This document shows, piece by piece, positions 1 through 15,644 of a DNA stretch of 16,369 nucleotides. The position numbers and the translations under genes are program-made. Each line of letters starts with the position of its first letter. Position 1 is the first letter of the stretch. The notes below the pieces were generated by a model. That model searched no databases. It was given only the letters and a program-made list of their open reading frames with translations, and was not told the origin of the DNA. This stretch comes from Candidatus Nitrosoabyssus spongiisocia (GTDB taxonomy: Archaea; Thermoproteota; Nitrososphaeria; Nitrososphaerales; Nitrosopumilaceae). The stretch covers positions 1,220,217-1,236,585 of the forward strand of contig CP136752.1 of assembly GCA_033471095.1 (NCBI GenBank), in the 5' to 3' direction.

Positions 1-1311
1 AAAGATCAGCAACGATATACATACTTGAGATTAACTAGTGAAAAATACCCTCGTCTATTGGTTACTCGACGTACTAGGGATGGGAAATTTCTAGGTAATG
101 GGAAGGTATTCGGTCCATTTACCCATGGCAGCTCTAAACTATTATCCATCGGTACACTACGAAAATCATTTCAAATTCGAATTTGTAAAACATTGCCAAA
201 AAAAGCATGTTTAGAGTATCATTTGGGAAATTGTGAAGCCCCCTGTGAATTTAAAAATGCACAAAAAAACTATTCTCACCACATAGATGGTCTGAGCAGA
301 GTTCTCACAAATCCACAACATCTAGTCACATTCAAAAGTGTGCTGCGCTCTAAAATGGAGGTTGCCTCCAAACATCAACAATACGAGTATGCAAAAAATA
401 TTCGTGATACAATATATCGATTAGATAACTTGACAGCAGAGCAAAAAATGGAGACAATATCTGGTTCTGATGAAGAGTATTTTGGGATTGACATTGTTGA
501 TGATATTGCCACCATTATGACTTTTCGTCAAATTAGAGGTGTAATACAAGACAGTGATAGATTTTCATTTGAAATACTCGGTGATAATATGTTTTCGAAT
601 TTTCTTTATCAATATTATACCACTCGTAAAATTCCAAATACGATAATTATCAATGTTCCAATAATTAATAAAAAACTTTTAGAGGTGTTGTTGTCTAGTA
701 AATCTGATCGTGCTGTTAAAATCAATCTTCCTAGTGGTAAACAGAAAAAATTAATGAGTTTACTTTTGAAAAATATTCAAGTTTTTCAAACTGCAGGTAC
801 AGAACCGGGTCTTGTAGAGCTAAAACAACTATTACATATCACTAAAATTCCTAAGATAATAGAGTGCTTTGATATATCAAATCATGGCTCTGATTTTGCT
901 GTCGGTTCTATGTCTAGATTCTCCCAGGGTATTCCTGATAAATCAGGATATAGAAAGTTTAAGATAAAAACCATACGCGGCAGAGATGATTTTGCAATGA
1001 TTGGAGAGATTGTAAAACGACGATATACTAGACTAAAAAACCAGTCTTTGCCTTTACCTGATCTTATACTTGTTGATGGTGGCAAAGGCCAATTAAACGC
1101 AGCCTATGCTGAATTGAAAAAACTGAATCTATCTATTCCTTGCATATCGATTGCAAAGGAGAATGAGGAGATTTACACGGTTGGCAAATCTGAGCCATTA
1201 ATAATATCTAGGGATAAAAAATCTCTTCAAATTTTACAATTTGCAAGAGATGAATCTCATAGATTTGGTGTATCTTATAATCGACATGTGCAAAAAATGA
1301 ATATAATCTAA
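1..1311 (+). CDS. uvrC: Excinuclease ABC subunit C (UvrC), 5'-truncated by the window edge
   Basis: The frame is open from nt 1 (KDQQRYTYLRLTSEKYPRLLVTRR...), so the TTG at 25 is not the true start. UvrC-like motifs: FGPF...TLRKSFQIRICK, then the C-terminal endonuclease region LILVDGGKGQLNAA...ISIAKENEEIY...ARDESHRFGVSYNRH. It ends about 10 aa after the xHRF motif, so no (HhH)2 tail is visible. Confidence 0.85.
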   Translation, partial: KDQQRYTYLRLTSEKYPRLLVTRRTRDGKFLGNGKVFGPFTHGSSKLLSIGTLRKSFQIRICKTLPKKACLEYHLGNCEAPCEFKNAQKNYSHHIDGLSRVLTNPQHLVTFKSVLRSKMEVASKHQQYEYAKNIRDTIYRLDNLTAEQKMETISGSDEEYFGIDIVDDIATIMTFRQIRGVIQDSDRFSFEILGDNMFSNFLYQYYTTRKIPNTIIINVPIINKKLLEVLLSSKSDRAVKINLPSGKQKKLMSLLLKNIQVFQTAGTEPGLVELKQLLHITKIPKIIECFDISNHGSDFAVGSMSRFSQGIPDKSGYRKFKIKTIRGRDDFAMIGEIVKRRYTRLKNQSLPLPDLILVDGGKGQLNAAYAELKKLNLSIPCISIAKENEEIYTVGKSEPLIISRDKKSLQILQFARDESHRFGVSYNRHVQKMNII

Positions 1312-1851
1312 TTAACTTACAGTGATACTTCCAACCATCCATGGATGGACTTGGCAATAATAGTCAAAAGTTCCAGTGTTTGTAAATAATTGTGAAAATG
1401 TAGTACCGCTAGCAAAGATTGAACTATCCCAACCATTTGGATATGCCTCACCTACTAGATTTGGATTTTCTTGAAGATTACCTGTAGTTACTGTGTGTAC
1501 TGCGATATCATCGTTAGTCCAAGTTACAGTATCTCCCACATTGATTTTTGCGTTAGATGGTGAGTAACATATATCGTTTTGTACACAATCCGGTGATCCA
1601 GCTCCATTAGGTATTGAAATAAGAACTCTTTTTGGAGCAGTATCTTTTTTTATCTTTTCTTCCATCATCATTTTCTCCATCATTTTCTCCTCTTCCATCA
1701 TTTTCTCCTCTTCCATCATCATTCTATCCGTGTTTTTATTATAATCTGCTGAACTGTCATCTGCCAAGCCAGACCATACAACTGCTACACCTACACCGAC
1801 AAATACAATAGCGATTGTCCACAACATGGCAGCTTTATCTACTGAAGTCAT
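1312..1851 (-). CDS. Membrane-anchored plastocyanin-like type-1 (blue) copper protein
   Basis: N-terminal hydrophobic anchor AAMLWTIAIVFVGVGVAVVW. C-terminal cupredoxin signature: VGDTVTWTNDDIAVHTV (His ligand) and FDYYCQVHPWMVGSITV (Cys-x2-His-x2-Met). Its stop abuts the uvrC stop (TAATTA, 1309-1314). Confidence 0.85.
   Translation of the reverse strand: MTSVDKAAMLWTIAIVFVGVGVAVVWSGLADDSSADYNKNTDRMMMEEEKMMEEEKMMEKMMMEEKIKKDTAPKRVLISIPNGAGSPDCVQNDICYSPSNAKINVGDTVTWTNDDIAVHTVTTGNLQENPNLVGEAYPNGWDSSIFASGTTFSQLFTNTGTFDYYCQVHPWMVGSITVS
1654..1722 (-). repeat. Met/Glu/Lys low-complexity linker (MMMEEEKMMEEEKMMEKMMMEEK) inside the cupredoxin gene
   Basis: Directly visible reiteration of catcattttctcctcttc-type units. 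It lies between the TM anchor and the cupredoxin domain. Confidence 0.8.
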
Positions 1852-1981
1852 TATAATTCAAACAAAATCCACTTACTTATAAATATATTTGATATCTCTG
1901 ATGAATGATTATTCTAATTAATGAATAAAATACTGTGTAGATTAGATGACTAAATTTATTAAATAAACAATTGAAAAATTA
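1852..1981. promoter_or_regulatory. Divergent intergenic region likely holding both promoters (cupredoxin gene leftward, LLM oxidoreductase rightward)
   Basis: TATA-like ttataaatat (1877-1886) is about 30 nt from the minus-strand ATG at 1851. TATA-like tttattaaat (1954-1963) is about 24 nt from the ATG at 1982. This spacing is typical of archaeal leaderless or short-leader transcripts. TATA-like strings are common in AT-rich DNA, so this call is weak. Confidence 0.4.
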
Positions 1982-3073
1982 ATGTTGAATAAATTAAAAT
2001 TTGGAATCCAAAATGGGTTAAATGTAGCCAGAGCTGGATATTCTATTGATCAAATACTTACTGCGTGTATGTTGGCAGACAAAACTGGTTATGATTCTAT
2101 TTTTTACATGGATCATACAAACGTACCACAATGGAAAAACGCAACTGTACTTGATCCCTGGGTTATGTTATCTGCAATTGCCGCAGTTACACAAAATGTT
2201 GAACTTGGAACATGTGTGACAGATGCCATTCGTCGTCACCCATCAAACATATCTCTTGCAGCAATTACCCTTGATCGTGTCTCCAAGGGACGAGCTATAC
2301 TTGGTATAGGTGCAGGAGAAGCACAAAACCTAAAAGAATTTTGCATACCTTTTGAAACACCTGTAAGTAAATGGGAAGAGCAAATTCAAGTTATTAAAAA
2401 ATTATACACATCAAACCCAGATAATGTGGTAGATTTTGATGGAAAATATTATCAACTAAAAGGAGCTTGTCTGCAAGCTGCCCCTATTCGTAAACCATAT
2501 CCACCAATATACATGGCAGCTGGAGGTTCGCGAACATTGAGATTAACTGGTAAATATGGTAATGGTTGGCTTCCAATTGGATATACCCCAGAGTTGTTTG
2601 AAGATCACGCAAATAAGATTAAAGAGTCAATGGATTCAAACAATCGATCTCAGGAGGAAAAGGATAATTTCCAATATGCTCTTGACATTGATGTTTATTT
2701 TTCCGAAGATGCCGAAGAGTCTTGGGCAAAGATGAAAGAGGCAATAAAAGTAAGCCTTTTCAAACCCGAAGTATTACGTGTACATAATCTTAAAGAAATT
2801 CAAGGTTTTGATTTCAAAAAATACTTTACAGAATACTCTATGTCAAATCAAGAGTGGATTGTAAAGATGCGAGAGGCTGCCACCACAATTCCAGATAATA
2901 TAGCACGTTCATCTATCGGAGTCGGTACGGTTGACGATATAATACCCGTATTTGAGAAATTCATGAACAAAGGCGTAAATCACTTTGTTATTAGATTTTG
3001 GGGCAAGAATTATTTTGGCAGTATTGATAAATTTGCCAGTAGCGTAATGCCACGTTTAAAAGAACTTGTCTAA
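1982..3073 (+). CDS. Luciferase-like monooxygenase (LLM) family, probable F420-dependent oxidoreductase
   Basis: 363 aa. It has an LLM-type TIM-barrel pattern: KFGIQ...GYDSIFYMDH, ...RAILGIGAGEAQNLKEFCIPFE...WEEQIQVIKKLY, ...PPIYMAAGGSRTLRLTGKYGNGWLP. Cofactor and substrate are not determinable from sequence. Confidence 0.8.
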   Translation: MLNKLKFGIQNGLNVARAGYSIDQILTACMLADKTGYDSIFYMDHTNVPQWKNATVLDPWVMLSAIAAVTQNVELGTCVTDAIRRHPSNISLAAITLDRVSKGRAILGIGAGEAQNLKEFCIPFETPVSKWEEQIQVIKKLYTSNPDNVVDFDGKYYQLKGACLQAAPIRKPYPPIYMAAGGSRTLRLTGKYGNGWLPIGYTPELFEDHANKIKESMDSNNRSQEEKDNFQYALDIDVYFSEDAEESWAKMKEAIKVSLFKPEVLRVHNLKEIQGFDFKKYFTEYSMSNQEWIVKMREAATTIPDNIARSSIGVGTVDDIIPVFEKFMNKGVNHFVIRFWGKNYFGSIDKFASSVMPRLKELV

Positions 3074-3408: not shown

Positions 3409-3928
3409 TTGTCAAACTTTAAAATTATTGGTATATCAATTATGGCCATCATCATAAGTTTGGGATTTGTGGCTTTGACCACACTATCTATTTCAAATAT
3501 TCCCAGTATTAATGAATATGTTGGTCTTTATGACAAAAGTGTCGAATTATTAAACAAGATGAAAGAAGTACAGAAACTAAACAATGAATTGATACAGTTA
3601 GAATCTTACGCAAATGCTGCAACCTTAGAACGTGATAAACTTTGAGACAGTTCAATAAGATATATGCTGAAATCACCACAGAGTATAATGAAGAGTATAT
3701 AGTCTATTAAACACTCTTTTGACAAGATACTCTACAAATGATCAATGGGATCGTTATGATGAAATTTTACAGTATATGACCGTATTAGAAAATAATTATT
3801 TAAAAGATACCAATGCTCATAATGCTCATTTGAGTAATTATTTTGATGATCTTTTAACATAACGTTCAACATATAATAACAAATACGGTGATTTGGCAAA
3901 TAAGATATCTGATATTATTGACAAGTAG
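3409..3928 (+). pseudogene. Fragmented gene for an N-terminally anchored coiled-coil protein
   Basis: ORF 3409-3645 encodes a TM helix (IIGISIMAIIISLGFVALTTL) plus a coiled-coil-like segment. Coding-like sequence resumes in another frame (STNDQWDRYDEILQYMTVLENNYLKDTNAHNAHLSNYFDDLLT, from 3731). An in-frame TAA at 3860-3862 interrupts it, and it continues RSTYNNKYGDLANKISDIIDK to the TAG at 3926-3928. Confidence 0.35.
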
Positions 3929-3988: not shown

Positions 3989-4180
3989 ATGGATGTTTTA
4001 TTGATTGTATATCTCACGATTAATATTTTGATTGCGTATATCAATCAAGCAGATCTATCTTTTACACATTATCTTGGCAGATATGGATTTTATATTCTTC
4101 TAGCAGGATTATTAATTTATGGTTCATATATGTTGATTACAAGAAATAGTGATAAATCCAAGAAGAATCAAAAGAAATAA
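3989..4180 (+). CDS. Hypothetical small membrane protein (63 aa)
   Basis: Two hydrophobic segments (VLLIVYLTINILIAYI and FYILLAGLLIYGSYMLI) and a Lys-rich tail. ORF evidence only. Confidence 0.4.
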   Translation: MDVLLIVYLTINILIAYINQADLSFTHYLGRYGFYILLAGLLIYGSYMLITRNSDKSKKNQKK

Positions 4181-4209
4181 AATTAAAATAGAGATTATAG
4201 TATCGCTCC

Positions 4210-4239
4210 ATGAATAGCACCCGAATTTGCAATAGAGCC
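4210..4239 (-). repeat. Copy 2 of the ~30-nt motif (subtype 2, inverted); reverse complement ggctctattgcaaattcgggtgctattcat
   Basis: Matches the reverse complement of copy 4 at 23/25 core positions. It lies 30 nt after the stop of ORF 3989-4180. Confidence 0.75.
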
Positions 4240-4462
4240 TTTACTATGATTATTAACAATTAACTCATTGCCACTAGTACCAAGTTTATTTGGTGTGGAT
4301 TTTACAGATATGTCACATAAATAGTCGGCAAATATCTCAGATTGAGTTTTTAAATTAATAGTATCAGATTCGTCATATTGCATATATCAAATATTTAATT
4401 TTTTTCCATCACATCATTGTGGTCAAAATTAGATTTGAGTGAAATGATTTTATGTAAAGAAT

Positions 4463-5383
4463 TTAAGATACGAGTTTGACAGATTTAATTTTTTTATGTA
4501 GATAAACAAATGCCAATGTTGGTAGACCAACATAAATTAGCAAGTTGATAGCAATTACAAGTAATCCCAAAGCCAACACACTATTCTCCGAGTCATCTAC
4601 CATCGTCATTATAGATACACTAGAGAGTAGAGGATATAGAATAGTCTGAATTATTTCACGCAGTAGAGGGTTTTCACGCTCAGCATCTGCAATTACAGGT
4701 GAAAAGGTGTAATAGATTTGGTTGAATGATGTTATGAAGGATATTCCAGGTAGACTAGTCATTAAAGTTGTATCACGTATCTCTCTGAGCATTTGTACTT
4801 GTTGTGAAAGCTCAGTTCCATATACTGCTGTTGCGATTAGACAACCACCTTTACCAGGAGAAGTGGTAGTAGAGTTATCATCCTTTATGGTTTTATCATC
4901 CTTTATGGTTTTATCATCCTTTATGGTTTTATCATCCTTTATGGTTTTATCGTCCATCATAATATCATCATCCTTTATGGTTTTATCGTCCATCATAATA
5001 TCATCATCCTTTATGGTTTTATCATCCTTTATGGTATTATCGTCCATTATGGTACCGGTAGATGTAACAGGTAATGTAGAATCAAAAGTGATGGAACCGG
5101 TGGGTTGAGAAATATCTACTAATTTTTGTTCACTTGTAAAGAAAGTATTAGAGTATACGCTAGCCTTTACAAATACAAAGCGTTCATCAGAAGACACTAG
5201 ACCCAAATAGACGACTCTATCAGAGTAGGGCTGTGTTAGGGAGAGTTGAGTTTTAATTACTCCTAGTTTGGAACTACTAATAGTAACAAAAGCATCATCA
5301 GATGATGGGCTAGCAATAATTTCAACTAGTTTTTTATCATCAGCTGACTTCCCAAGATACTTTGTGAATAATAGCCTCTGCAA
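4463..5383 (-). CDS. CFI-box-CTERM-type membrane-anchor protein with an acidic (DDKTIK)n linker
   Basis: C-terminal block GGCLIATAVYGTELSQQVQMLREIRDTTLM...FNQIYYTFSPVIADAERENPLLREII. It is followed by hydrophobic segments (VLALGLLVIAINLLIYVGLPTLAFVYL) and a basic tail. This matches my memory of the CFIATAAYGS...VQ.LR.FRD CFI-box C-terminal domain. There is no signal peptide. The called TTG start sits directly after a stop codon and overlaps the upstream ORF by 44 nt. Confidence 0.7.
   Translation of the reverse strand: MQRLLFTKYLGKSADDKKLVEIIASPSSDDAFVTISSSKLGVIKTQLSLTQPYSDRVVYLGLVSSDERFVFVKASVYSNTFFTSEQKLVDISQPTGSITFDSTLPVTSTGTIMDDNTIKDDKTIKDDDIMMDDKTIKDDDIMMDDKTIKDDKTIKDDKTIKDDKTIKDDNSTTTSPGKGGCLIATAVYGTELSQQVQMLREIRDTTLMTSLPGISFITSFNQIYYTFSPVIADAERENPLLREIIQTILYPLLSSVSIMTMVDDSENSVLALGLLVIAINLLIYVGLPTLAFVYLHKKIKSVKLVS
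4878..5057 (-). repeat. Ten tandem 18-nt units (tcatcctttatggtttta, variant tcgtccatcataatatca) encoding DDKTIK / DDDIMM
   Basis: Counted directly. Four perfect units run from 4878 to 4949. Interleaved variants follow to 5057. The array is in frame (6 aa per unit). Confidence 0.9.
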
Positions 5384-8300
5384 TTATTGGGGCTTGACCA
5401 CCAGTGAATATACGACCTGCGCCGCCGCCTCCTGAGCTACTGCCATCACCACTACTAGTAAATGGAATAGGTGCAGGTACTTGAGTACTAGTGGCACCGG
5501 TGGAAGATGTTAGAGCATAGGTGGATAGGTGAGTGGTGTAAATTGTTACATGAGTGTTGTCATCTACAAAACATTCGTTTGTGGAAGTAGTGGTTAAAAG
5601 AGTATTAATTTCTGCGATATTACTAGTACCACAGGATGACATCTGGGTTGGTGTAGAGCCAATAGTATTTACATAATATGCATTATAATTATTTCCACCT
5701 TGATTTTCAAATACAATAGATACAACTGTATCACCTAGGTTGAGATCAATTGTTACATCTCCCAAAGTTATAGCTGTAATCGTTACATGACTAGTAGTAG
5801 TCTGACCTGCAGTTGTAGATGGTACAGTAATAGTAGCAGTACGTGGTGCAAGGAATTGCGAATCCCAAGTACCATCATGAGTAATAATAGTACTAGTAGG
5901 TATCATGACTGTAATGTCATTAGTAGATACAAGTTTGGCAGTTAATCCTGCAGTGATATTAGTAGTGTTTAAAGTAGTAGCGATATAATTGATAGTAACA
6001 TTTTGATGTTCAGGTGTAACAATTAATGGTACGTCTATATGAAGAAGTGTAGGAGACACCATCTGATCGCTTGATGTAACGTTACTTTGGACGTTTAAGC
6101 TATTTTCTGTATTAAATATACCATTATTTACAGCGTCTAAAACAGAATCTGTAGGAAAATGTACATTAGCTCCAGAACTATGTTGTAGATTTGTGTTAAC
6201 CACATGTTCAGATATATTGTTACTAAAAGTAAAAACCAAAGTAGGATTGTTTGTAGAATCAACATTAGTAGTAGTGAATGCTCCTGAAGTTATACCCAAT
6301 CGTGATGAATTAGGTATGATTACATTTTCACTAAATGTAACAGTTAGAGTATGTGCTAAAGTGTCATATATTGGAGTATTAACGACTGTTGGTCGTATAG
6401 TGTCACGAACAACTATAATTCTATTTACTTGAACGGCATTATTTCCTGCCGAATCAACAGAGTTGTATGTGATGGTGTAATTGCCTACAGTATCTGTATC
6501 TACAGTGTCACCACCAATGACGATAGGAGAGTCATCATCAGTAGTGGCGTTTTGCTCATTATATGTGGAGTTTATGTTTAGTGTTATGGTACTACTGCCA
6601 TTCAGTGTGATTACTGGGGGAATAGTGTCACTAACAACTATAGTTCTATTCACTTGGGTGGCATTATTTCCTGCTGAATCAACAGAGTCATAGGTGACGG
6701 TATAATTTCCCACGAGAGATGAATTTACAGTGTCACCACCAATGACGATAGGAGAGTCATCATCAGTAGTGGCGTTTTGCTCATTATATGTAGAGTTTAT
6801 GTTTAGTGTTATGGTACTATTACCATTCAGTGTGATTACTGGGGGAATAGTGTCACTAACAATTACAAGCCTATTCACTTGGGTGGCATTATTTCCTGCT
6901 GAATCAACAGAGTCATAGGTGACGGTATAATTTCCCACGAGAGATGAATTTACAGTGTCACCACTAATTGTTACTGGAGAGTTATCATCAGTAGTGGCGT
7001 TTTGCTCATTATATGTAGCGCCAACAAATAGTGTTATGGTACTATTGCCATTCAGTGTGATTACTGGGGGAATAGTGTCACTAACAATTACAAGCCTATT
7101 CACTTGGGTGGCATTATTTCCTGCTGAATCAACAGAGTCATAGGTGACGGTATAATTTCCCACGAGAGATGAATTTACAGTGTCACCACCAATTGTTACT
7201 GGAGAGCCATCATCAGTAGTGGCGTTTTGCTCAGAGTAGGATGAGCCAAGTTCTACATAAACAGTAGCATTACCAATTAGTGTGATTACTGGGGGAGTAT
7301 CATCTGGTGCATCAGAAATTATTACAGTTCTATCAACTTGGGTGGCATTATTTCCTGCTGAATCAACAGAGTTGTATGTGACGGTATAATTTCCCTTGAG
7401 AGATGAATTTACAGTGTCACCACCAATTGTTACTGGAGAGTTATCATCAGTAGTGGCGTTTTGCTCATTATATGTAGAGCCAACAAATAGTGTTATGGTA
7501 CTATTGCCATTCAGTGTGATTACTGGGGGAATAGTGTCACTAACAATTACAAGCCTATTCACTTGGGTGGCATTATTTCCTGCTGAATCAACAGAGTCAT
7601 AGGTGACGGTATAATTTCCCACGAGAGATGAATTTACAGTGTCACCACCAATTGTTACTGGAGAGCCATCATCAGTAGTGGCGTTTTGCTCAGAGTAGGA
7701 TGAGCCAAGTTCTACATAAACGACATTATTACCATTCAGTGTGATTACTGGGGGAGTAGTATCTGAAATGTTGTTAATTACAGGTTGATTCACAAAGTTT
7801 TCTAGTGTTATGTCAGTATTTTGAGTAGAGTTTATTCCACCACTAGTTTTAGTATATGAGATAATTATGGTTTCATTTGCCAAGAGATTTCTGCTTAAAT
7901 TCAGAGTAATTGAAGAGGAGTTTGATGTTATACTATCTATTGTAGCAGATGTTCCATTAAGAGCAAAGTCGGTTATAGTGGCCGAGTAAGTAATGTTTTC
8001 ATTAAAAGTAATTATAATGTTATCACCTTGTGTATTGGTAATAGCAGAAGTTATCACTACACTTCTATCTTCAGGTGTAGATATAGTAAAGAAAGTAGAA
8101 GGAGAGTTTTGATTTGCATACTCTGTTGCAATCCAGTCTGCAGAGCGAGCAGTAGATGATAGTCGGAATTCATCTAATTTGCCATTAAAGAATTGATTAA
8201 ATACCCAATTGATTTTTCCAATATAGTTTGTTGTTCTATTCACATCATTAGATGTATGCACAGCACCACTAGTAATTGAGGTACCATTGTGATAAATAGT

Positions 8301-8582
8301 TGCTGTACCTGATGATTCATGTACAACTGTAAAGTATGCCCATTGACCTTTCTGCAAAACACCACTAATTGTGACATTCTGAGATACGTTACCTCTTAGC
8401 ATATCATATGTCAAATCCGTGTTAGCATAAGGGGAATAATCCAATATAGGGCTTTGAAATACAATATTGTCTTGTGCCAGACCATTGCCAAAATCAACGA
8501 ATCTAGCAAAACCTCTATTGCCACCAATATTTGCCCATACCGAGATGGTAAAGTCTGTATTGTAGAATAGACTACCTGCCAA
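5340..8582 (-). CDS. Large surface protein segment: LamG (concanavalin-like) domain + Ig-like repeat + 6x DUF5011/HYR-like Ig repeats + Thr/Ser/Asn-rich beta-rich C-terminal half
   Basis: LamG motifs: FTISVWAN, GQWAYFTVVHESSGTATIYHNG, FNGKLDEFRLSSTARSADWIATEYANQ. Six 75-78 aa repeats follow the pattern PPVITLNG..Y.EQNATTDD.SPVTIGGDTVNSS.VGNYTVTYDSVDSAGNNATQV. N-x-S/T sequons are very dense. The called TTG start is mid-domain, and the frame stays open upstream to 8759. No signal peptide or anchor is present. Confidence 0.8.
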   Translation of the reverse strand: MAGSLFYNTDFTISVWANIGGNRGFARFVDFGNGLAQDNIVFQSPILDYSPYANTDLTYDMLRGNVSQNVTISGVLQKGQWAYFTVVHESSGTATIYHNGTSITSGAVHTSNDVNRTTNYIGKINWVFNQFFNGKLDEFRLSSTARSADWIATEYANQNSPSTFFTISTPEDRSVVITSAITNTQGDNIIITFNENITYSATITDFALNGTSATIDSITSNSSSITLNLSRNLLANETIIISYTKTSGGINSTQNTDITLENFVNQPVINNISDTTPPVITLNGNNVVYVELGSSYSEQNATTDDGSPVTIGGDTVNSSLVGNYTVTYDSVDSAGNNATQVNRLVIVSDTIPPVITLNGNSTITLFVGSTYNEQNATTDDNSPVTIGGDTVNSSLKGNYTVTYNSVDSAGNNATQVDRTVIISDAPDDTPPVITLIGNATVYVELGSSYSEQNATTDDGSPVTIGGDTVNSSLVGNYTVTYDSVDSAGNNATQVNRLVIVSDTIPPVITLNGNSTITLFVGATYNEQNATTDDNSPVTISGDTVNSSLVGNYTVTYDSVDSAGNNATQVNRLVIVSDTIPPVITLNGNSTITLNINSTYNEQNATTDDDSPIVIGGDTVNSSLVGNYTVTYDSVDSAGNNATQVNRTIVVSDTIPPVITLNGSSTITLNINSTYNEQNATTDDDSPIVIGGDTVDTDTVGNYTITYNSVDSAGNNAVQVNRIIVVRDTIRPTVVNTPIYDTLAHTLTVTFSENVIIPNSSRLGITSGAFTTTNVDSTNNPTLVFTFSNNISEHVVNTNLQHSSGANVHFPTDSVLDAVNNGIFNTENSLNVQSNVTSSDQMVSPTLLHIDVPLIVTPEHQNVTINYIATTLNTTNITAGLTAKLVSTNDITVMIPTSTIITHDGTWDSQFLAPRTATITVPSTTAGQTTTSHVTITAITLGDVTIDLNLGDTVVSIVFENQGGNNYNAYYVNTIGSTPTQMSSCGTSNIAEINTLLTTTSTNECFVDDNTHVTIYTTHLSTYALTSSTGATSTQVPAPIPFTSSGDGSSSGGGGAGRIFTGGQAPIIAEAIIHKVSWEVS
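6408..7766 (-). repeat. Six tandem coding repeats, period 225 nt (one of 234), DUF5011-like Ig domains
   Basis: The copies fall into subtypes a,b,a,b,c,c. Subtype a reads VYVELGSSYSEQ..DDGSP. Subtype b reads ITLFVG.TYNEQ..DDNSP. Subtype c reads ITLNINSTYNEQ..DDDSPIVIGG. This indicates a higher-order duplication. Confidence 0.9.
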
Positions 8583-8759
8583 GTCTGGAAGATCAAGATA
8601 ATTTACGTAGTCTGGGTATAATCCATAAAAGTTTAATCCATTACCAATTTGTGCAGATACTGAATTATTAGGGCTAAAGGCAAAACGGTTTGGAGTCTGT
8701 GGTGTTGCATGACAATCATTCCCTGATGAGTCTAGGGTAGAGTTTGCAGTAAAAGTGGA
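8583..8759 (-). other. 177-nt nominally intergenic stretch that is stop-free, in frame with both neighbouring ORFs, and encodes the N-terminal strands of the downstream LamG domain
   Basis: My translation: STFTANSTLDSSGNDCHATPQTPNRFAFSPNNSVSAQIGNGLNFYGLYPDYVNYLDLPDL. It runs straight into (L)AGSLFYNTDFTISVW. There is no ATG, GTG or TTG within these 59 codons. Confidence 0.65.
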
Positions 8760-11162
8760 TTAATCCATGTGATAAATTATTTCATAGTCTGAATCCCAAA
8801 CATTATCATGTATAATAGTTGCCGCTAATGAGACATTATAATACATGTAGAGTATGGTATCACTGGTATTGCTCAAAGTAGGTAGACGAACCCAAGCTAC
8901 TAGAGTACCGGTAGTAGCATTATTAGTAAATGACTCAATTTCATGCTGTAATATAGTAAATCCATCACTGCTAGTGAAAATAATATCGGCTCCGTTAGGC
9001 AGAACAGCTGAATTGTTCAAAGCAGAATCAGAGATACTTACTAGAAGGGTAAAGTTTTGAAGAGTTGTAGTTATTTGGTTACTGTTAATAGTAATTTTCT
9101 GTCTAGTATCCCACAAGGAAGGTAAATCAAAAAATTGAACATTATTAGTGATTGGTTGATTTGTAAAGTTTGCAAGTGATAAATCATTCACGTTTGTAAT
9201 ATTACTAGTTGTTTGATTATATGATACTGTTAATGGCAATACAGGTGGAATGTTAGAGTCTAGTGTTAGATTGATGGCAGTGTCATTATGTCTAGTTATA
9301 CTAGTTGTAGCAATACCTGAAATACTTACTGCAAAGTCAGTTGGAGAAGTGGTATTGGTAAGAGTGACTACTTTATCAAAGTTGACAGTTATGTTGTCAC
9401 CTCGCTGGTTTGTGTAAGCGTTAACAAAGATTGGAGGTGGTAGAACATTATTAGTGATTGGTTGATTTGTAAAGTTTGCAAGTGATAAATTATTTACGTT
9501 TGTAATACTACTAGTTGTTTGATTATATGATACTGTTAATGGTAATACAGGTGGAATGTTAGAGTCTAGTGTTAGATTGATGGCAGTGTCATTATGTCTA
9601 GTTATACTAGTTGTAGCAATACCTGAAATACTTACTGCAAAGTCAGTTGGAGAAGTGGTATTGGTAAGAGTGACTACTTTATCAAAGTTGACAGTTATGT
9701 TGTCACCTCGCTGGTTTGTGTAAGCGTTAACAAAGATTGGGGGTGGTAGAACATTATTAGTGATTGGTTGATTTGTAAAGTTTGCAAGTGATAAATTATT
9801 TACGTTTGTAATACTACTAGTTGTTTGATTATATGATACTGTTAATGGTAATACAGGTGGAATGTTAGAGTCTAGTGTTAGATTGATGGCAGTGTCATTA
9901 TGTCTAGTTATACTAGTTGTAGCAATACCTGAAATATTTACTGCAAAGTCAGTTAGAGAAGTGGTATTGGTAAGAGTGACTACTTTATCAAAGTTGACAG
10001 TTATGTTGTCACCTCGCTGGTTTGTGTAAGCGTTAACAAAGATTGGAGGTGGTAGAACATTATTAGTGATTGGTTGATTTGTAAAGTTTGCAAGTGATAA
10101 ATTATTTACGTTTGTAATACTACTAGTTGTTTGATTATATGATACTGTTAATGGTAATACAGGTGGAATGTTAGAGTCTAGTGTTAGATTGATGGCAGTG
10201 TCATTATGTCTAGTTATACTAGTTGTAGCAATACCTAAAATATTTACTGCAAAGTCAGTTGGAGAAGCGGTATTGGTAAGAGTGACTACTTTATCAAAGT
10301 TGACAGTAATATTGTCACCTTGCTGGTTTGTATAAGCACTAACAAAAATTGGAGGTGGTAGAACATTATTAGTGATTGGTTGATTCACAAAGTTTTCTAG
10401 TGTTATGTCTGTATTTTGAGTAGAGTTTATTCCACCACTAGTTTTAGTATATGAGATAGTGATGATTTCATTTGCCAAGAGATTTCCTCTTAAATTCAGA
10501 GTAATTGAAGAGGAGTTTGATGTTATACTATCTATTGTAGCAGATGTACCAGTAAGAGTAAAGTCAGTAGTAGGAATAACCGAATAGATAATGTTTTCAC
10601 TAAAAGTAATTATAATGTTATCACCTTGTGTGTTGGTAATAGCAAAAGTTATCGCTACACTTCTATCTTCAGGTGCAGATATAGTAAAGAAAGTAGAAGG
10701 AGAGTTTTGATTTGCATACTCTGTTGCAATCCAGTCTGCAGAGCGAGCAGTAGATGATAGTCGGAATTCATCGAATTTGCCATCAAAGTAGGAATCAGTT
10801 CCCCAATTGGATCTTCCGATATAGTTTGATGCTCTATTCACATCAAGAGATGTATGTACGGTATCACTAGTAATTGAGGCGCCATTTTTGTAGATAGTTG
10901 CTGTACCTGATGATTCATGTACAACTGTAAAGTGTGCCCATTGACCTGTCTGCAAAACGCCTCTAACTGCGATACCCAGAGAGTAGGCACCCTGTAGCAT
11001 ATTATATCTTAAACCATGGATAAGTTCATAGTAAGCAAATAGAATATTGTCTTGTCTCTCACCATTGCCAAAATCAACGATTCTAGCCTGACTTTTAATG
11101 GCATCAATATTTGCCCATGCCGAGATGGTAAAGTCTGTATTGTGGAATAGACTACCTTCCAA
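8760..11162 (-). CDS. Large surface protein segment: LamG domain + Ig-like repeat + 4x 102-aa Ig-like (SwmB/Big_5-like) repeats + C-terminal DUF2341 domain
   Basis: The LamG region is similar to that of the downstream ORF. DUF2341-like block: LWDTRQKITINSNQITTTLQNFTLLVSISD...NGADIIFTSSDGFTILQHEIESF...LVAWVRLPTLSNTSDTILYMYYN...VWDSDYEIIYHMD-stop. The called TTG start is mid-LamG, and the frame is open upstream to 11339. No signal peptide is present. Confidence 0.8.
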   Translation of the reverse strand: MEGSLFHNTDFTISAWANIDAIKSQARIVDFGNGERQDNILFAYYELIHGLRYNMLQGAYSLGIAVRGVLQTGQWAHFTVVHESSGTATIYKNGASITSDTVHTSLDVNRASNYIGRSNWGTDSYFDGKFDEFRLSSTARSADWIATEYANQNSPSTFFTISAPEDRSVAITFAITNTQGDNIIITFSENIIYSVIPTTDFTLTGTSATIDSITSNSSSITLNLRGNLLANEIITISYTKTSGGINSTQNTDITLENFVNQPITNNVLPPPIFVSAYTNQQGDNITVNFDKVVTLTNTASPTDFAVNILGIATTSITRHNDTAINLTLDSNIPPVLPLTVSYNQTTSSITNVNNLSLANFTNQPITNNVLPPPIFVNAYTNQRGDNITVNFDKVVTLTNTTSLTDFAVNISGIATTSITRHNDTAINLTLDSNIPPVLPLTVSYNQTTSSITNVNNLSLANFTNQPITNNVLPPPIFVNAYTNQRGDNITVNFDKVVTLTNTTSPTDFAVSISGIATTSITRHNDTAINLTLDSNIPPVLPLTVSYNQTTSSITNVNNLSLANFTNQPITNNVLPPPIFVNAYTNQRGDNITVNFDKVVTLTNTTSPTDFAVSISGIATTSITRHNDTAINLTLDSNIPPVLPLTVSYNQTTSNITNVNDLSLANFTNQPITNNVQFFDLPSLWDTRQKITINSNQITTTLQNFTLLVSISDSALNNSAVLPNGADIIFTSSDGFTILQHEIESFTNNATTGTLVAWVRLPTLSNTSDTILYMYYNVSLAATIIHDNVWDSDYEIIYHMD
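9137..10360 (-). repeat. Four tandem near-identical coding repeats, period 306 nt (102 aa)
   Basis: The landmark gaacattattagtgattggttgat recurs at 9137, 9443, 9749, 10055 and 10361. Unit: NQPITNNVLPPPIFVNAYTNQRGDNITVNFDKVVTLTNTTSPTDFAVSISGIATTSITRHNDTAINLTLDSNIPPVLPLTVSYNQTTSSITNVNNLSLANFT. Confidence 0.9.
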
Positions 11163-11339
11163 GTCTGGAAGATCAAGATAATCTCCGTTGTTGTTGTCTA
11201 CTCCATCAAAGTTTAGTCCATTACCAATTTGTGCAGATACTAAATCATTAGATTCAAAGGGAGTAGAGCCTGTAGATAGTGGTGTTGCATGACAATCATT
11301 CCCTGATGAGTCTAGGGTAGAGTTTGCAGTAAAAGTGGA
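11163..11339 (-). other. Second 177-nt stop-free in-frame stretch encoding LamG N-terminal strands
   Basis: My translation: STFTANSTLDSSGNDCHATPLSTGSTPFESNDLVSAQIGNGLNFDGVDNNNGDYLDLPDL, then (L)EGSLFHNTDFTISAW. It has the same length and frame as 8583-8759. The ends are identical, and the centre is diverged but still open. Confidence 0.65.
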
Positions 11340-12748
11340 TTAATCCATGTGATAAATTATTTCATAGTCTGAATCCCAAACATTATCATGTATAATAGTT
11401 GCCGCTAATGAGACATTATAATACATGTAGAGTATGGTATCACTGGTATTGCTCAAAGTAGGTAGACGAACCCAAGCTACTAGAGTACCGGTAGTAGCAT
11501 TATTAGTAAATGACTCAATTTCATGCTGTAATATAGTAAATCCATCACTGCTAGTGAAAATAATATCATCTCCGTTAGGCAGAACAGACTGAATTGTTCA
11601 AAGCAGAATCAGAGATACTTACTAGAAGGGTAAAGTTTTGAAGAGTTGTAGTTATTTGGTTACTGTTAATAGTAATTTTCTGTCTAGTATCCCACAAGGA
11701 AGGTAAATCAAAAAATTGAACATTATTAGTGATTGGTTGATTTGTAAAGTTTGCAAGTGATAAATCATTCACGTTTGTAATATTACTAGTTGTTTGATTA
11801 TATGATAGTGTTAATGGTAATGCAGGTAGAATGTTAGAGTCTAGTGTTAGATTGATTGCAGTGTCATTATGTCTAGTAATACTAGTTGTGGCAATACCTA
11901 AAATATTTACTGCAAAGTCAGTTGGAGAAGTGGTATTGGTAAGAGTGATTTCTCTATCAAAGTTGACAATTATGCTGTCACCTCGCTGGTTTGTATAGGC
12001 GTTAACAAAGATTGGATATGATGGAACATTATTAGTGATTGGTTGATTTGTAAAGTTTGCAAGTGATAAAGTAGGATCTACACTATCAGTGATATTTGTG
12101 CCTGTATCGTTGTATGATAAAAGTGGAGAGTCGTCAAAAGATAGGGTAGAGTTTAGTGAAAGAATTATAGAAGTTGCATTATTACTAGTTATACTATTCA
12201 CAGAAGTGGATGAATTAATTATAGCAAAGTCGCTAAGGAATGTAGTACTACCTACTGTAATATTTTTAGAAAATACAACAATAATATTGCTACCAGTTGT
12301 ATCAGTATACACTCTACTAGGAGGATTCAGAGCTGACATTATTTGTTACACTAGAAATATTAATGGAACCAGAAGGGTGACCATCAATTCTTATCAGAGT
12401 CTGAATAGATGTATAAGATAGACTAAGACTAGTAGTAGGAGTTATGGGCGGAGATACAACTATGGCGATAGTATTAGCGTCAACATTATAAAAATCAGTT
12501 ATGTTATAGTTGGCAGGATTAAACACAAAAGATGAATTTAAATTAGTCCGAGTAGCTAAATCCGTGTATGTGATATTGGAACGAATCGGCACAGATATAG
12601 TTATCGTATCACCATCAGTATTAGTAGATGCATTTATAGGTGCATATTGTCCAAAAGCAGAATCTAGTGGAAAGAGCAAAGTGGCAGAGAGAACGATAAT
12701 AGCAGTTAAAGAGAGAGTCATCACATATGAATGATAGACATTATGCAA
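11340..12748 (-). pseudogene. First module of the surface-protein locus (signal peptide + Ig-like repeats + DUF2341), disrupted by two frameshifts
   Basis: Signal-peptide-like start MTLSLTAIIVLSATLLFPLDSAFGQ; the ATG at 12721 is likelier than the TTG at 12748. The frame changes near 12325-12345 (...ISSVTNNV | NPPSRVYTDTTGSNIIVVF). It changes again at an extra A at 11588: agaacagActgaattg versus agaacagctgaattg in the paralog at 9001-9015. After that, the DUF2341 sequence continues open in the locus frame to the TAA at 11340-11342. Confidence 0.65.
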
Positions 12749-13886: not shown

Positions 13887-14739
13887 ACTAGACTGAATCT
13901 GTGTAAATACTGTAATTCAGGTAATATCAAAAAGGATGGTATGAGGAACAGCAAACAAGGAAAAATACAACGATTCAAATGTTTAGATTATAATAAACGC
14001 TTTACATCAAATTTTGAATTTGAGGGTAAACAATCTGATTCAAAAATAATTACAGGTGCATTACAAATGTATTATTCAGGTATGTCAGTTGGAGATATTT
14101 CAACACATTATGAGTTTGATACTGATGTGAATCGTTCTACTATGAATCGCTGGATTGCCAAATACCCTGTAATGTTAACTAGATACCTAGATGAAATCAT
14201 ACCACGTGTTGGCAATTGGATTCGTGCTGATAAAGTATGAATAAAGATGTCAGGTAAACCAAAATATCTATTTGCACCTATGAATAATGACACTCGTTTT
14301 GGTTTAGTTAAAGACATGGCCGATACTAAATTTCAGCACAATGCAGATTATTTGTTGAAACTGACTAAATTGACTACTGGGAATAAAACACCCAAGCATT
14401 TTATCACAGATGGATTACCATCATAGGGTAAATCGTCAAGAAGAGTATTTGGCAGAGAAACACAATATGATAAAAATATACACTTGAAAGGTGAGATGAA
14501 TAACAATATGATGGAACGTCTAAATGGTGAGATTCGTGATTGTAGGAAAGTGTTTAGAGGATTGAAGAGAAGATAGTCTGATTATTAATGGTGTGACAGT
14601 GTATTACAATTGTGCCAAAAAGTATAGTGGTATTGACAATAAGAGACCATCTAAGAGAGCAAAGATAACTGTCAAGGGTCGTAACAAGTGGAATACTTTG
14701 ATACAGAGTGCAAGTTTGCATGATTATGATACTATCTAA
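13887..14739 (+). pseudogene. Degraded DDE transposase (IS remnant; archaeal zinc-ribbon + DDE type, IS6/IS240-like by motif; family uncertain)
   Basis: Open from 13887 with no start codon: CKYCNSGNIKKDG...GKIQRFKCLDYNKRF, where the second zinc pair reads C-x2-Y. WIRADKV-TGA-IKMSGKPKYLFA sits where ADE.W.K.kGk.yLfa is expected (stop at 14238-14240). ITDGLPS-TAG-GKSSRRVFG sits where DGL.sY is expected. NNNMMERLNGEIRDCRKVFRGLKRR is followed by a stop and frameshift near 14570. The tail reads IINGVTVYYNCAKKYSGIDNKRPSKRAKITVKGRNKWNTLIQSA to the TAA at 14737-14739. Confidence 0.7.
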
Positions 14740-15525
14740 TTTTTGGGGCAAAATTTTCAATTAAACCTTTCATTGCATTATGACATTTCTTCATATCCTT
14801 GTTAATAGAGTCAGACTCTAATTGCTCAATATTGCATTCACTACATTTATCAGCATTCATATGGATTTTGTCATGTTTGCCACATAATTTTCCATTTGAT
14901 TCTAACGTTGGATCTAATCTAACGAGTCATTCAACATTAAACATACTCAAATAATGAAACATTGTACTGTGATTTATAATAAGATCAGCAAGGTGCACTT
15001 TATCAGATATGTCCTAAAATTAATTCATCGCTCATTGGTCTTATCCCAATTAGGATAAAAACATAATAATTTCAATTTGTTAAAATTGTCAGTATAGACA
15101 TTTAATTGCTTGAATATATCCTCATACTGTGATGACACCTGTTCATTGTAGGTTATATCAGTATCTTTCAATCCCTCAGTTGCCTGCTCATATTTATCAC
15201 GAGATAAAGTTTACTATTTTATAATAATAGATTGGTAAAGTATCCTGCTTTCTTGTGATGATTAAGAAAATGTTTCATCCAGTAATCTTTTGTAATATCT
15301 TTTTTCTCAAAATGGAAATTACATAATGTGCACATTAGATGATTATTCATGGGATAAACATGTTAATGAAATTGCTGACTGATATTCAAATTTATCACAT
15401 AGTATGTCACTATGATTCATTAAAGATTTTGCATATTTTGCACTATATCTAACACTATTCCATATATTTTTATGAGAAATATGGATTTTAGAATCATCGG
15501 ACACGATTATTTTTAAATAATTCAT
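14732..15525 (-). pseudogene. Heavily decayed gene of unknown family (fragments in three frames)
   Basis: Fragments, in order:
- MNYLKIIVSDDSKIHISHKNIWNSVRYSAKYAKSLMNHSDILCDKFEYQSAISLTCLSHE-stop
- NNHLMCTLCNFHFEKKDITKDYWMKHFLNHHKKAGYFTNLLL-stop
- SRDKYEQATEGLKDTDITYNEQVSSQYEDIFKQLNVYTDNFNKLKLLCFYPNWDKTNER-stop
- DISDKVHLADLIINHSTMFHYLSMFNVE-stop-LVRLDPTLESNGKLCGKHDKIHMNADKCSECNIEQLESDSINKDMKKCHNAMKGLIENFAPKIR-stop
A HEPN/AbiV-like reading is only a faint impression. Confidence 0.4.
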
Positions 15526-15571
15526 ATATTTAGATCGGTAATGATGTTTTTAGTATTAAATTATTAGAACC

Positions 15572-15601
15572 ATTAATAACACCCGAATTTGCAATAGAAC
15601 C
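15572..15601 (-). repeat. Copy 4 of the ~30-nt motif (subtype 2, inverted); reverse complement ggttctattgcaaattcgggtgttattaat
   Basis: It differs from the copy 1 core only at the three subtype positions (7, 14, 17). It lies 43 nt upstream of the ATG at 15645 and is followed immediately by c + TAAAGT. Confidence 0.75.
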
Positions 15602-15644
15602 CTAAAGTAGAATATTTTTTAATGTGTATTTATAATGATAATTT

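Follow-up and report, generated by a model that had tools for sequence, protein, structure and literature searches.

The window analysed here is a 16,369-nucleotide (nt) stretch of the genome of Candidatus Nitrosoabyssus spongiisocia (GenBank assembly GCA_033471095.1, contig CP136752.1, positions 1,220,217 to 1,236,585 of the forward strand), and its central feature is a giant surface-protein gene whose reading frame is broken five times. GC content is ~33%, and the neighbourhood is typical for Nitrosopumilaceae, comprising the C-terminal 428 residues of UvrC, a plastocyanin-like cupredoxin, an F420-dependent LLM oxidoreductase and a PPOX-class protein. The surface-protein gene occupies positions 4463 to 12748 on the minus strand; it is split into five open reading frames (ORFs) in the window, whereas in relatives a single ORF covers the same span. 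The five breaks are frameshifts near 12335, at 11588 and near 5346, together with in-frame TAA codons at 11340-11342 and 8760-8762, through both of which the reading frame stays open.

Read from its start, the gene encodes a signal peptide (MTLSLTAIIVLSATLLFPLDSAFGQ) and repeats of 102 amino acids (aa), followed by a first DUF2341 and Laminin_G_3 module. Four further 102-aa repeats precede a second DUF2341 and LamG module, and the gene ends with six 75-aa Bact_surface_Ig-like repeats, a DDKTIK hexapeptide repeat, and a CFI-box-CTERM domain with a terminal membrane helix. In Pfam, Laminin_G_3 is matched at 68.8 bits (cut-off 27.6), DUF2341 at 26.2 bits (cut-off 23.4) and Bact_surface_Ig-like at 92.2 bits, with SWM_repeat-like also matched. 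The NCBIfam model CFI_box_CTERM (NF041770) scores 71.1 bits (cut-off 40) on the ORF at 4463-5383, which is joined to the main ORF in 10 of 10 relatives and in the window gene after the repair described below. Homologs returned by protein search are annotated as DUF2341 or LamG proteins. The window protein resembles known DUF2341-LamG surface proteins that carry Ig-like repeats and a CFI-box-CTERM anchor, both in its domain matches and in its lectin-like predicted fold; it differs from them in being very large (~2760 aa) and in that the number of DUF2341-LamG modules, one or two, varies with the strain. The real locus is best read as one continuous gene, whose product of ~2760 aa would be a lectin-like surface protein that is secreted, anchored in the membrane and probably binds glycans or a host.

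Two proteins of the N. spongiisocia metagenome-assembled genome (MAG), P0002 (822 aa) and P0013 (1102 aa), correspond residue for residue to the window's two large ORFs lengthened to ATT starts. The record of P0002, a DUF2341 domain-containing protein, was found by protein search with 100% identity to the window's 800-aa ORF; exact-protein look-ups of the 800-aa, 254-aa, 67-aa and 59-aa ORFs of the window and of P0002 returned no record. The public annotation places the ATT starts at 11226-11228 and 8646-8648 (minus strand), in each case 22 residues upstream of the first TTG, a sign of an annotator stretching ORFs in a broken gene.

The two TAA codons lie in the same frame 2580 nt apart (11342-11340 and 8762-8760 on the minus strand), and both stand in the context ...EIIYHMD, stop, STFTANSTLDSSGNDCHATP, as an earlier note on this DNA, written from the letters alone, had reported. 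The duplicated block of ~526 bp that this note described is also present. Its upstream copy (11282-11808, minus strand) holds the end of a 102-aa repeat, DUF2341 and the first LamG strand, and it differs from the downstream copy (8702-9227, minus strand) by two adjacent substitutions (GCC versus GAT, 8988/8989) and by an extra base at 11588. One of the two substitutions, 8989, is a true paralog difference that is present in relatives too. The other, 8988, is a synonymous change of GCT to GCC that converts AGCT to AGCC on the minus strand, and it belongs to the motif-linked class considered below. Because the TAA lies inside a repeated block, its recurrence does not call for two independent coincidences.

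On the coding strand, the sequence 3′ of the block (8701-8582 versus 11281-11162) diverges in patches without any indel and with its frame open, and in the first 30-nt window beyond the block only 15 of 30 positions are identical. The upstream segment of 177 nt that runs from the TAA to the next start codon (11163-11339, minus strand) codes for the N-terminal part of LamG with diversified loops, and its counterpart in the downstream module (8583-8759, minus strand) is of the same nature. The earlier note had proposed that these segments evolved as coding sequence, and in relatives they are indeed part of one continuous ORF. A dN/dS check on the diverged patch, which had also been suggested there, gives 2.7 synonymous versus 25.3 non-synonymous differences (pN/pS ~3, from small numbers). 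This indicates that the patch is a diversified coding loop region, neither the product of neutral decay nor a decaying spacer.

For comparison at strain level we used ten places (L001-L010) on contigs of the ENA assembly ERZ20067936, which an exact-match look-up with the oxidoreductase had returned. With flanks 99.1-99.7% identical to the window, they represent the same species. In 10 of 10 places the surface gene is one uninterrupted ORF of 2027-2823 aa that runs from signal peptide to CFI-box anchor. The comparison of module number among strains that the earlier note had recommended shows one DUF2341-LamG module at six places and two at the other four. In the two-module contigs (L002, L006, L007 and L009) the junction codons are 2577-2580 nt apart, and only 29-61 substitutions over 8.4 kb separate these contigs from the window.

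These contigs also bear on whether the duplication is itself an artefact, with the ~0.5-kb repeats collapsed or mis-joined into a false second module. Such an error would be favoured by the strongly repetitive nature of the gene and by the origin of the assembly in a metagenome with mixed strains. However, the same two-module layout is found in four independent contigs that differ so little from the window, and one-module variants exist as well, as distinct alleles. We therefore take the window's two-module layout as genuine and regard a false duplication as very unlikely. The mosaic of identical and diverged patches recognized in the earlier note likewise holds up, given that L006 and L009 share the near-identical block, with a 3′ boundary at offset +73 and a spacing of 2577-2580 nt.

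Between the window (6403-7836 and 4841-5086) and the ten places, the length of the surface gene varies through the gain or loss of modules (one or two), of 225-nt Ig-like repeats and of 18-nt DDKTIK units. Modules and repeats vary in number among co-occurring strains and, it appears, exchange sequence with each other. One of the contigs, ena:ERZ20067936:ptg000012l (2.15 Mb), carries the locus twice as different alleles, L006 at 2129313-2150404 and L007 at 593707-614798, which lie 1,535,606 bp apart. This contig probably runs round the circular chromosome of a ~1.45-Mb genome more than once, switching strain as it does so.

Searches beyond this set add little. The junction DNA pattern, with either TAA or CAA, has no exact match in the GTDB species genomes or the JGI metagenomes. 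The nearest species genomes, reached through the F420 oxidoreductase, have at best 87% protein identity and are unusable for base-level comparison. In 80 other Nitrosopumilaceae loci, including those of long-read MAGs, UvrA, UvrB, UvrC and the oxidoreductase are intact in every case, just as in the window, a result that is uninformative here; ‘stops’ flagged in UvrB among these loci were taken, uninspected, as the natural stop at the UvrB/UvrA overlap.

At the position of the TAA, all 14 modules of the ten places have CAA, which encodes Gln (YHMDQSTF), and the MAG itself keeps CAA at the junction in 8 of its 12 modules. The frame that stays open through both TAAs and the coding-like character of the flanking sequence would suit functional codons, that is, sites of programmed stop-codon readthrough or recoding, or the true ends of three tandem genes. 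Against this, the stop is unconserved, no in-frame TAA occurs in other genes of the window, and the ORFs downstream of the TAAs would lack a signal peptide, would have their starts within the LamG jelly roll, and are annotated only by way of ATT starts. Functional TAAs consequently seem to us to have scarcely any chance of being correct. An arrangement of three tandem genes was rejected on account of those internal starts, and an alternative genetic code with reassigned TAA was rejected as well, the other ORFs of the window being normal and the relatives having CAA.

Structure prediction bears on the same point. The AlphaFold model of P0005, a paralog with Gln retained at the junction, is unbroken and of high confidence over residues 70-415, in which DUF2341 is followed by a LamG jelly roll, and the junction residue Gln191 is placed three residues past the strand formed by residues 183-188. 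The best matches of this model in the PDB are lectin-like jelly rolls, namely the Hc domain of clostridial neurotoxin, domain 4 of the GH43 arabinanase AbnA, and the lectin domain of trans-sialidase. A gene boundary at the TAA junction would make no structural sense.

The lesions of the window are concentrated at two tetranucleotides. We scored as window-private every position at which the relatives agree with one another and the window departs from them, which yields 26 events. Although GATC and AGCT, taken with one flanking base on each side, cover only 2.1% of positions, 15 of the 26 private differences lie on or beside one of these motifs (binomial p = 5e-19) and 11 lie off both. All five lesions that break ORFs, the two TAAs and the three insertions, are motif-linked, and every one of the 15 motif-linked differences is absent from the ten ERZ20067936 places. 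The changes from GATC to GATT number three on the plus strand (3467, 4006 and 14541) and seven on the minus strand (11706, 11342, 11294, 9125, 8762, 8714 and 8438). AGCT is affected by two substitutions (14308, C to T; 8988, T to C) and three insertions (12335, 11588 and 5346), and the motif-linked substitutions are C/T transitions in 12 of 12 cases. Only part of the available sites is affected, 10 of 34 for GATC and 5 of 24 for AGCT, leaving ~24 of 34 and ~19 of 24 unchanged. Natural polymorphism among the ten contigs comprises 82 polymorphic columns in 9.6 kb, none of them in motif columns, with 68 transitions spread across all contexts.

Within the surface gene, most of the GATC changes come in pairs, one per module. 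The C of GATC is changed at both TAA codons, GAT-CAA becoming GAT-TAA in the upstream module (11340-11342, minus strand) and GATC likewise becoming GATT in the downstream module (8760-8762, minus strand). Twin changes at 11294 in the upstream module and 8714 in the downstream module (minus strand) convert GATC to GATT and CGT to TGT, replacing Arg by Cys (NDCHATP) where 14 of 14 modules of the relatives have Arg. A further pair, 11706 and 9125 (minus strand), turns GATC into GATT and is synonymous (CTA to TTA). The remaining change of this type in the gene, at 8438 (minus strand), replaces His by Tyr in the LamG domain of the downstream module. Outside the surface gene, GATC is GATT at 3467 (plus strand; Ser to Phe in a 67-aa ORF), at 4006 (plus strand; synonymous in a 63-aa ORF) and at 14541 (plus strand), in a transposase remnant that also carries the change from AGCT to AGTT at 14308 (plus strand).

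The three frameshifts are single-base insertions in the window, none of which duplicates a neighbouring base in pairwise alignment with the four two-module contigs. An identical insertion, GTAGCT to GTCAGCT, directly 5′ of AGCT, is found at two unrelated places on the minus strand: at 12335 it separates the signal-peptide ORF from the rest of the gene, and at 5346 it cuts off the ORF with the CFI-box-CTERM anchor (4463-5383). The third insertion, at 11588 (minus strand), lies within AGCT and changes CAG-CTG (CAGCTG) to CAGTCTG. The earlier note had treated it as a private mutation that breaks only the upstream copy. It is right that the twin site at 9005-9008 is intact; but the insertion falls on an AGCT site, it is absent from relatives, and its frameshift product also ends the unlinked MAG paralogs P0005 and P0006. 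The description as a private mutation is therefore not upheld. For GATC, we found no flanking-context rule that separates changed from unchanged sites beyond a G or T before the motif, and similar contexts differ in outcome. The twin contexts at 9005 and 11585 differ in outcome as well.

Reverting the seven GATT sites in the surface gene and deleting the three inserted bases, a repair confined to motif-linked changes, restores a single ORF of 2760 aa without internal stop. The repaired protein is 98.2% identical to that of L006 over 2037 residues, and ~98% identical also to that of L002.

The same lesions appear in paralogs of the surface gene. We compared the paralogous fragments P0001-P0013 of the N. 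spongiisocia MAG, with P0010 and P0014 counted in the non-MAG set. Cys (SSGND-C-HATP) is encoded in 8 of 8 MAG modules in which GAT-CGT provides a GATC (the two window modules and P0003-P0008), and Arg (SSGNN-R-HATP) in 2 of 2 MAG modules that have AAT-CGT and no GATC (P0001 and P0009). All 16 non-MAG sequences with GAT-CGT, and hence GATC, encode Arg (14 modules of the relatives, P0010 and P0014). Fisher's exact p is 9e-7 as computed with 17 non-MAG sequences, a value that the correct count of 16 changes little. The YHMD-stop also terminates P0003 and P0011, and the frameshift product NNSVCS also terminates P0005 and P0006. The same lesions thus recur at unlinked loci of this one assembly, and only where the motif is present. 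At 10798/10801 (minus strand) the window encodes NWGTDSYF, as against NWASDSYF in all four two-module relatives; the GT allele is present in the MAG paralogs P0001 and P0009, and it reflects either sequence exchange between paralogs or polishing with paralog reads.

The manner in which the genome was obtained provides a candidate cause. The MAG of N. spongiisocia is closed, measures 1.45 Mb and was obtained from the glass sponge Aphrocallistes beatrix (PMC11525543). Libraries were prepared with the native barcoding kit SQK-NBD112.96 and run on a PromethION FLO-PRO112 flow cell (R10.4), with base calling by Guppy 6.1.5 in high-accuracy (HAC) mode; assembly was by Flye (--nano-raw --meta) followed by Medaka, and short-read polishing is unmentioned (PMC11525543). 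Both tetranucleotides are methylation targets in this family. Tables derived from REBASE list M.Nca01I and M.Nca01II in Ca. Nitrosomarinus catalina, which modify AGCT (N4-methylcytosine) and GATC (N6-methyladenine), and the same GATC/AGCT pair is listed for Nitrosoarchaeum BD3 and strain MY3 (PMC11033074). In Ca. Nitrosomarinus catalina SPOT01, more than 99% of sites are modified, according to Ahlgren et al. 2017 as cited in PMC11033074. In marine Thaumarchaeota MAGs the modified share of AGCT sites is 82-91%, and GATC modification extends throughout the archaeal MAGs, the pair being known from two marine MAGs (PMC8919816). The private differences of the window thus cluster at exactly the two motifs of the known Nitrosopumilaceae methylome (PMC11033074, PMC8919816). 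The difference from those systems is that methylation in N. spongiisocia is deduced from relatives, with no methyltransferase gene within the window.

Errors of this kind have been described for nanopore data. According to Lohde et al. 2024 (PMC11610573) and Liu et al. 2024, who present ‘Hammerhead’ (PMC11610603), methylation-induced errors are chiefly C/T and A/G ambiguities, and only part of the ambiguous positions become assembly errors. In these studies GATC dominates the error-prone sites of several species, with read accuracy falling at its G and C. The phenomenon is defined by a strand asymmetry among the reads. The pattern in the window is like the one described there in that the errors sit on motifs, are mostly C/T or G/A and affect part of the sites; it is also like it in the prominence of GATC and in the use of native-DNA libraries without amplification. 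The systems differ, the published work being on bacterial isolates, mostly with Kit 14 and R10.4.1, and the present genome being an archaeal MAG obtained with Kit 12, R10.4 and HAC base calling. The insertion signature linked to AG4mCT (GTAGCT to GTCAGCT, CAGCTG to CAGTCTG) is likewise not described in the passages of PMC11610573 and PMC11610603 considered here.

We conclude, with a probability of about 0.88, that both TAAs, the Arg-to-Cys change and the three frameshifts are base-calling and consensus errors caused by N6-methyladenine in GATC and N4-methylcytosine in AGCT in a nanopore-only assembly. We infer that GATC and AGCT are methylated in N. spongiisocia and that the changes arose in base calling, not in the cell. 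In this explanation, as in other Nitrosopumilaceae, nearly every GATC would carry N6-methyladenine and nearly every AGCT N4-methylcytosine. The modified bases would distort the pore signal such that, at a fraction of sites, base caller and consensus write T for C or add a base. The identical block in both modules would then yield doubled errors, with GAT-CAA to GAT-TAA, GAT-CGT to GAT-TGT and GAT-CTA to GAT-TTA each occurring twice, and three single-base insertions at AGCT would supply the frameshifts. The frameshift at 11588 would be one stochastic outcome at an AGCT site, which its twin at 9005 escaped and the paralogs P0005 and P0006 did not.

This account also differs from the proposal of the earlier note that the stop was spread by gene conversion. 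The TAAs and the adjacent Arg-to-Cys changes fall on GATC and are absent from the 14 modules of the relatives' ten loci. Because the sequence context is identical in both modules, the same error can arise in each, and conversion of the stop is not required. Near-identical blocks beside diverged patches in tandem modules are what a conversion-homogenized nonsense mutation would also show; they are classic conversion tracts, and they are real here. Exchange or conversion between modules within the gene is plausible on the basis of the alignments. Unlike the prediction of such a model, however, the stop is absent from the converted allele of any accurate assembly, and it appears to track the methylation motif and the sequencing technology, not lineage.

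Several observations weigh against an origin in base calling. None of 18 motif sites is changed in the housekeeping genes (UvrC, cupredoxin and F420 oxidoreductase; 25-3073), as opposed to 15 of 41 elsewhere (p = 0.0025), and all nine GATC sites in these genes would give non-synonymous changes. In addition, the motif-linked transitions are all on the coding strand of the local gene. Sparing of the housekeeping genes together with this coding-strand pattern is the picture that would be expected of real mutation and purifying selection, and a pure artefact needs an additional dependence on context or coverage, or a regional imbalance of read strands. Methylation at these motifs is, moreover, known from relatives of N. 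spongiisocia only, and the technology behind ERZ20067936 is taken only from its hifiasm-style contig names (ptg...l).

The changes might instead be real mutations, the result of a process aimed at the two methylated tetranucleotides that pseudogenized the whole DUF2341-LamG adhesin family in the lineage of sponge S29, with conversion homogenizing the copies and selection protecting essential genes. The housekeeping counts just given speak for this possibility. So does position 2932 (plus strand), the sole private change in a housekeeping gene, which is synonymous (a C-to-T change in GGTCGAC, a SalI/TaqI-type site off GATC and AGCT). Symbiont genomes, furthermore, often gather pseudogenes. Nonetheless, the required rate would be more than 100 times background in a lineage ~0.06% diverged, the natural polymorphism of the species is without motif enrichment (0/82), and conversion would have to act across the genome to place the same changes in at least six unlinked paralogs. 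In GATC it is the A that is methylated, so deamination of methylcytosine does not explain GATC to GATT, and we know of no mutational mechanism for non-duplicative single-base insertions at AGCT. The assembly method, finally, is exactly the one known for such errors. We therefore consider real mutation improbable.

One specific form of this alternative is a real, lineage-specific hypermutation with C-to-T changes at G6mATC and insertions at AG4mCT, both on the non-template strand, by which the giant-adhesin family was inactivated and housekeeping genes were kept by purifying selection; we hold it to be, if anything, slightly more improbable. If true, archaea would have a form of hypermutation directed at methylation motifs that has not been described before, and it would offer a symbiont a way to lose surface proteins rapidly. 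Two related candidates were also considered. Deamination by an APOBEC-like activity targeting TC was rejected, given that the changes are limited to GATC and do not affect TC generally. Deamination of 5-methylcytosine at GATC is unlikely, since it is the A of GATC that Nitrosopumilaceae methylate.

Under the explanation by base-calling errors, the recurring in-frame stop would not be biology but a recognizable trap. In nanopore-only archaeal MAGs, methylation artefacts should be suspected behind apparent nonsense codons such as GAT-TAA or GAT-TGT and behind odd single-base insertions at AGCT. The affected genome is the nomenclatural type genome of Nitrosoabyssus spongiisocia. Its giant lectin-like surface proteins form a family with a plausible role in host interaction; the annotation breaks this family into a dozen or more fragments, of which some have ATT starts, and gene counts and inferences on pseudogenes or genome reduction are therefore biased. 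What remains real, and mildly interesting, is the variation among strains from 2027 to 2823 aa, with one or two modules and conversion-like blocks beside diversified LamG loops.

Three further features of the window lie outside the surface gene. The transposase-like remnant at 14247-14600 (plus strand; …NNMMERLNGEIRD[R/C]RKVFRGLKRR), called from a sequence motif only, holds the motif-linked changes at 14308 and 14541 and, relative to other strains, a 31-bp insertion at 14474-14504. Degenerate direct repeats at 4068-4254 and 15466-15616 (70-79% identity) flank an 11.4-kb stretch with the surface gene and the transposase remnant. These repeats include the 3′ end of a small ORF (…GSIANSGAIHGAIL) and may have been left by an old insertion or duplication. 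The cupredoxin (1312-1851, minus strand) has a low-complexity linker rich in Met, Glu and Lys (MMMEEEKMMEEEKMMEKMMMEEK), and its length is 181 aa in L007 and 179 aa in the other nine places.

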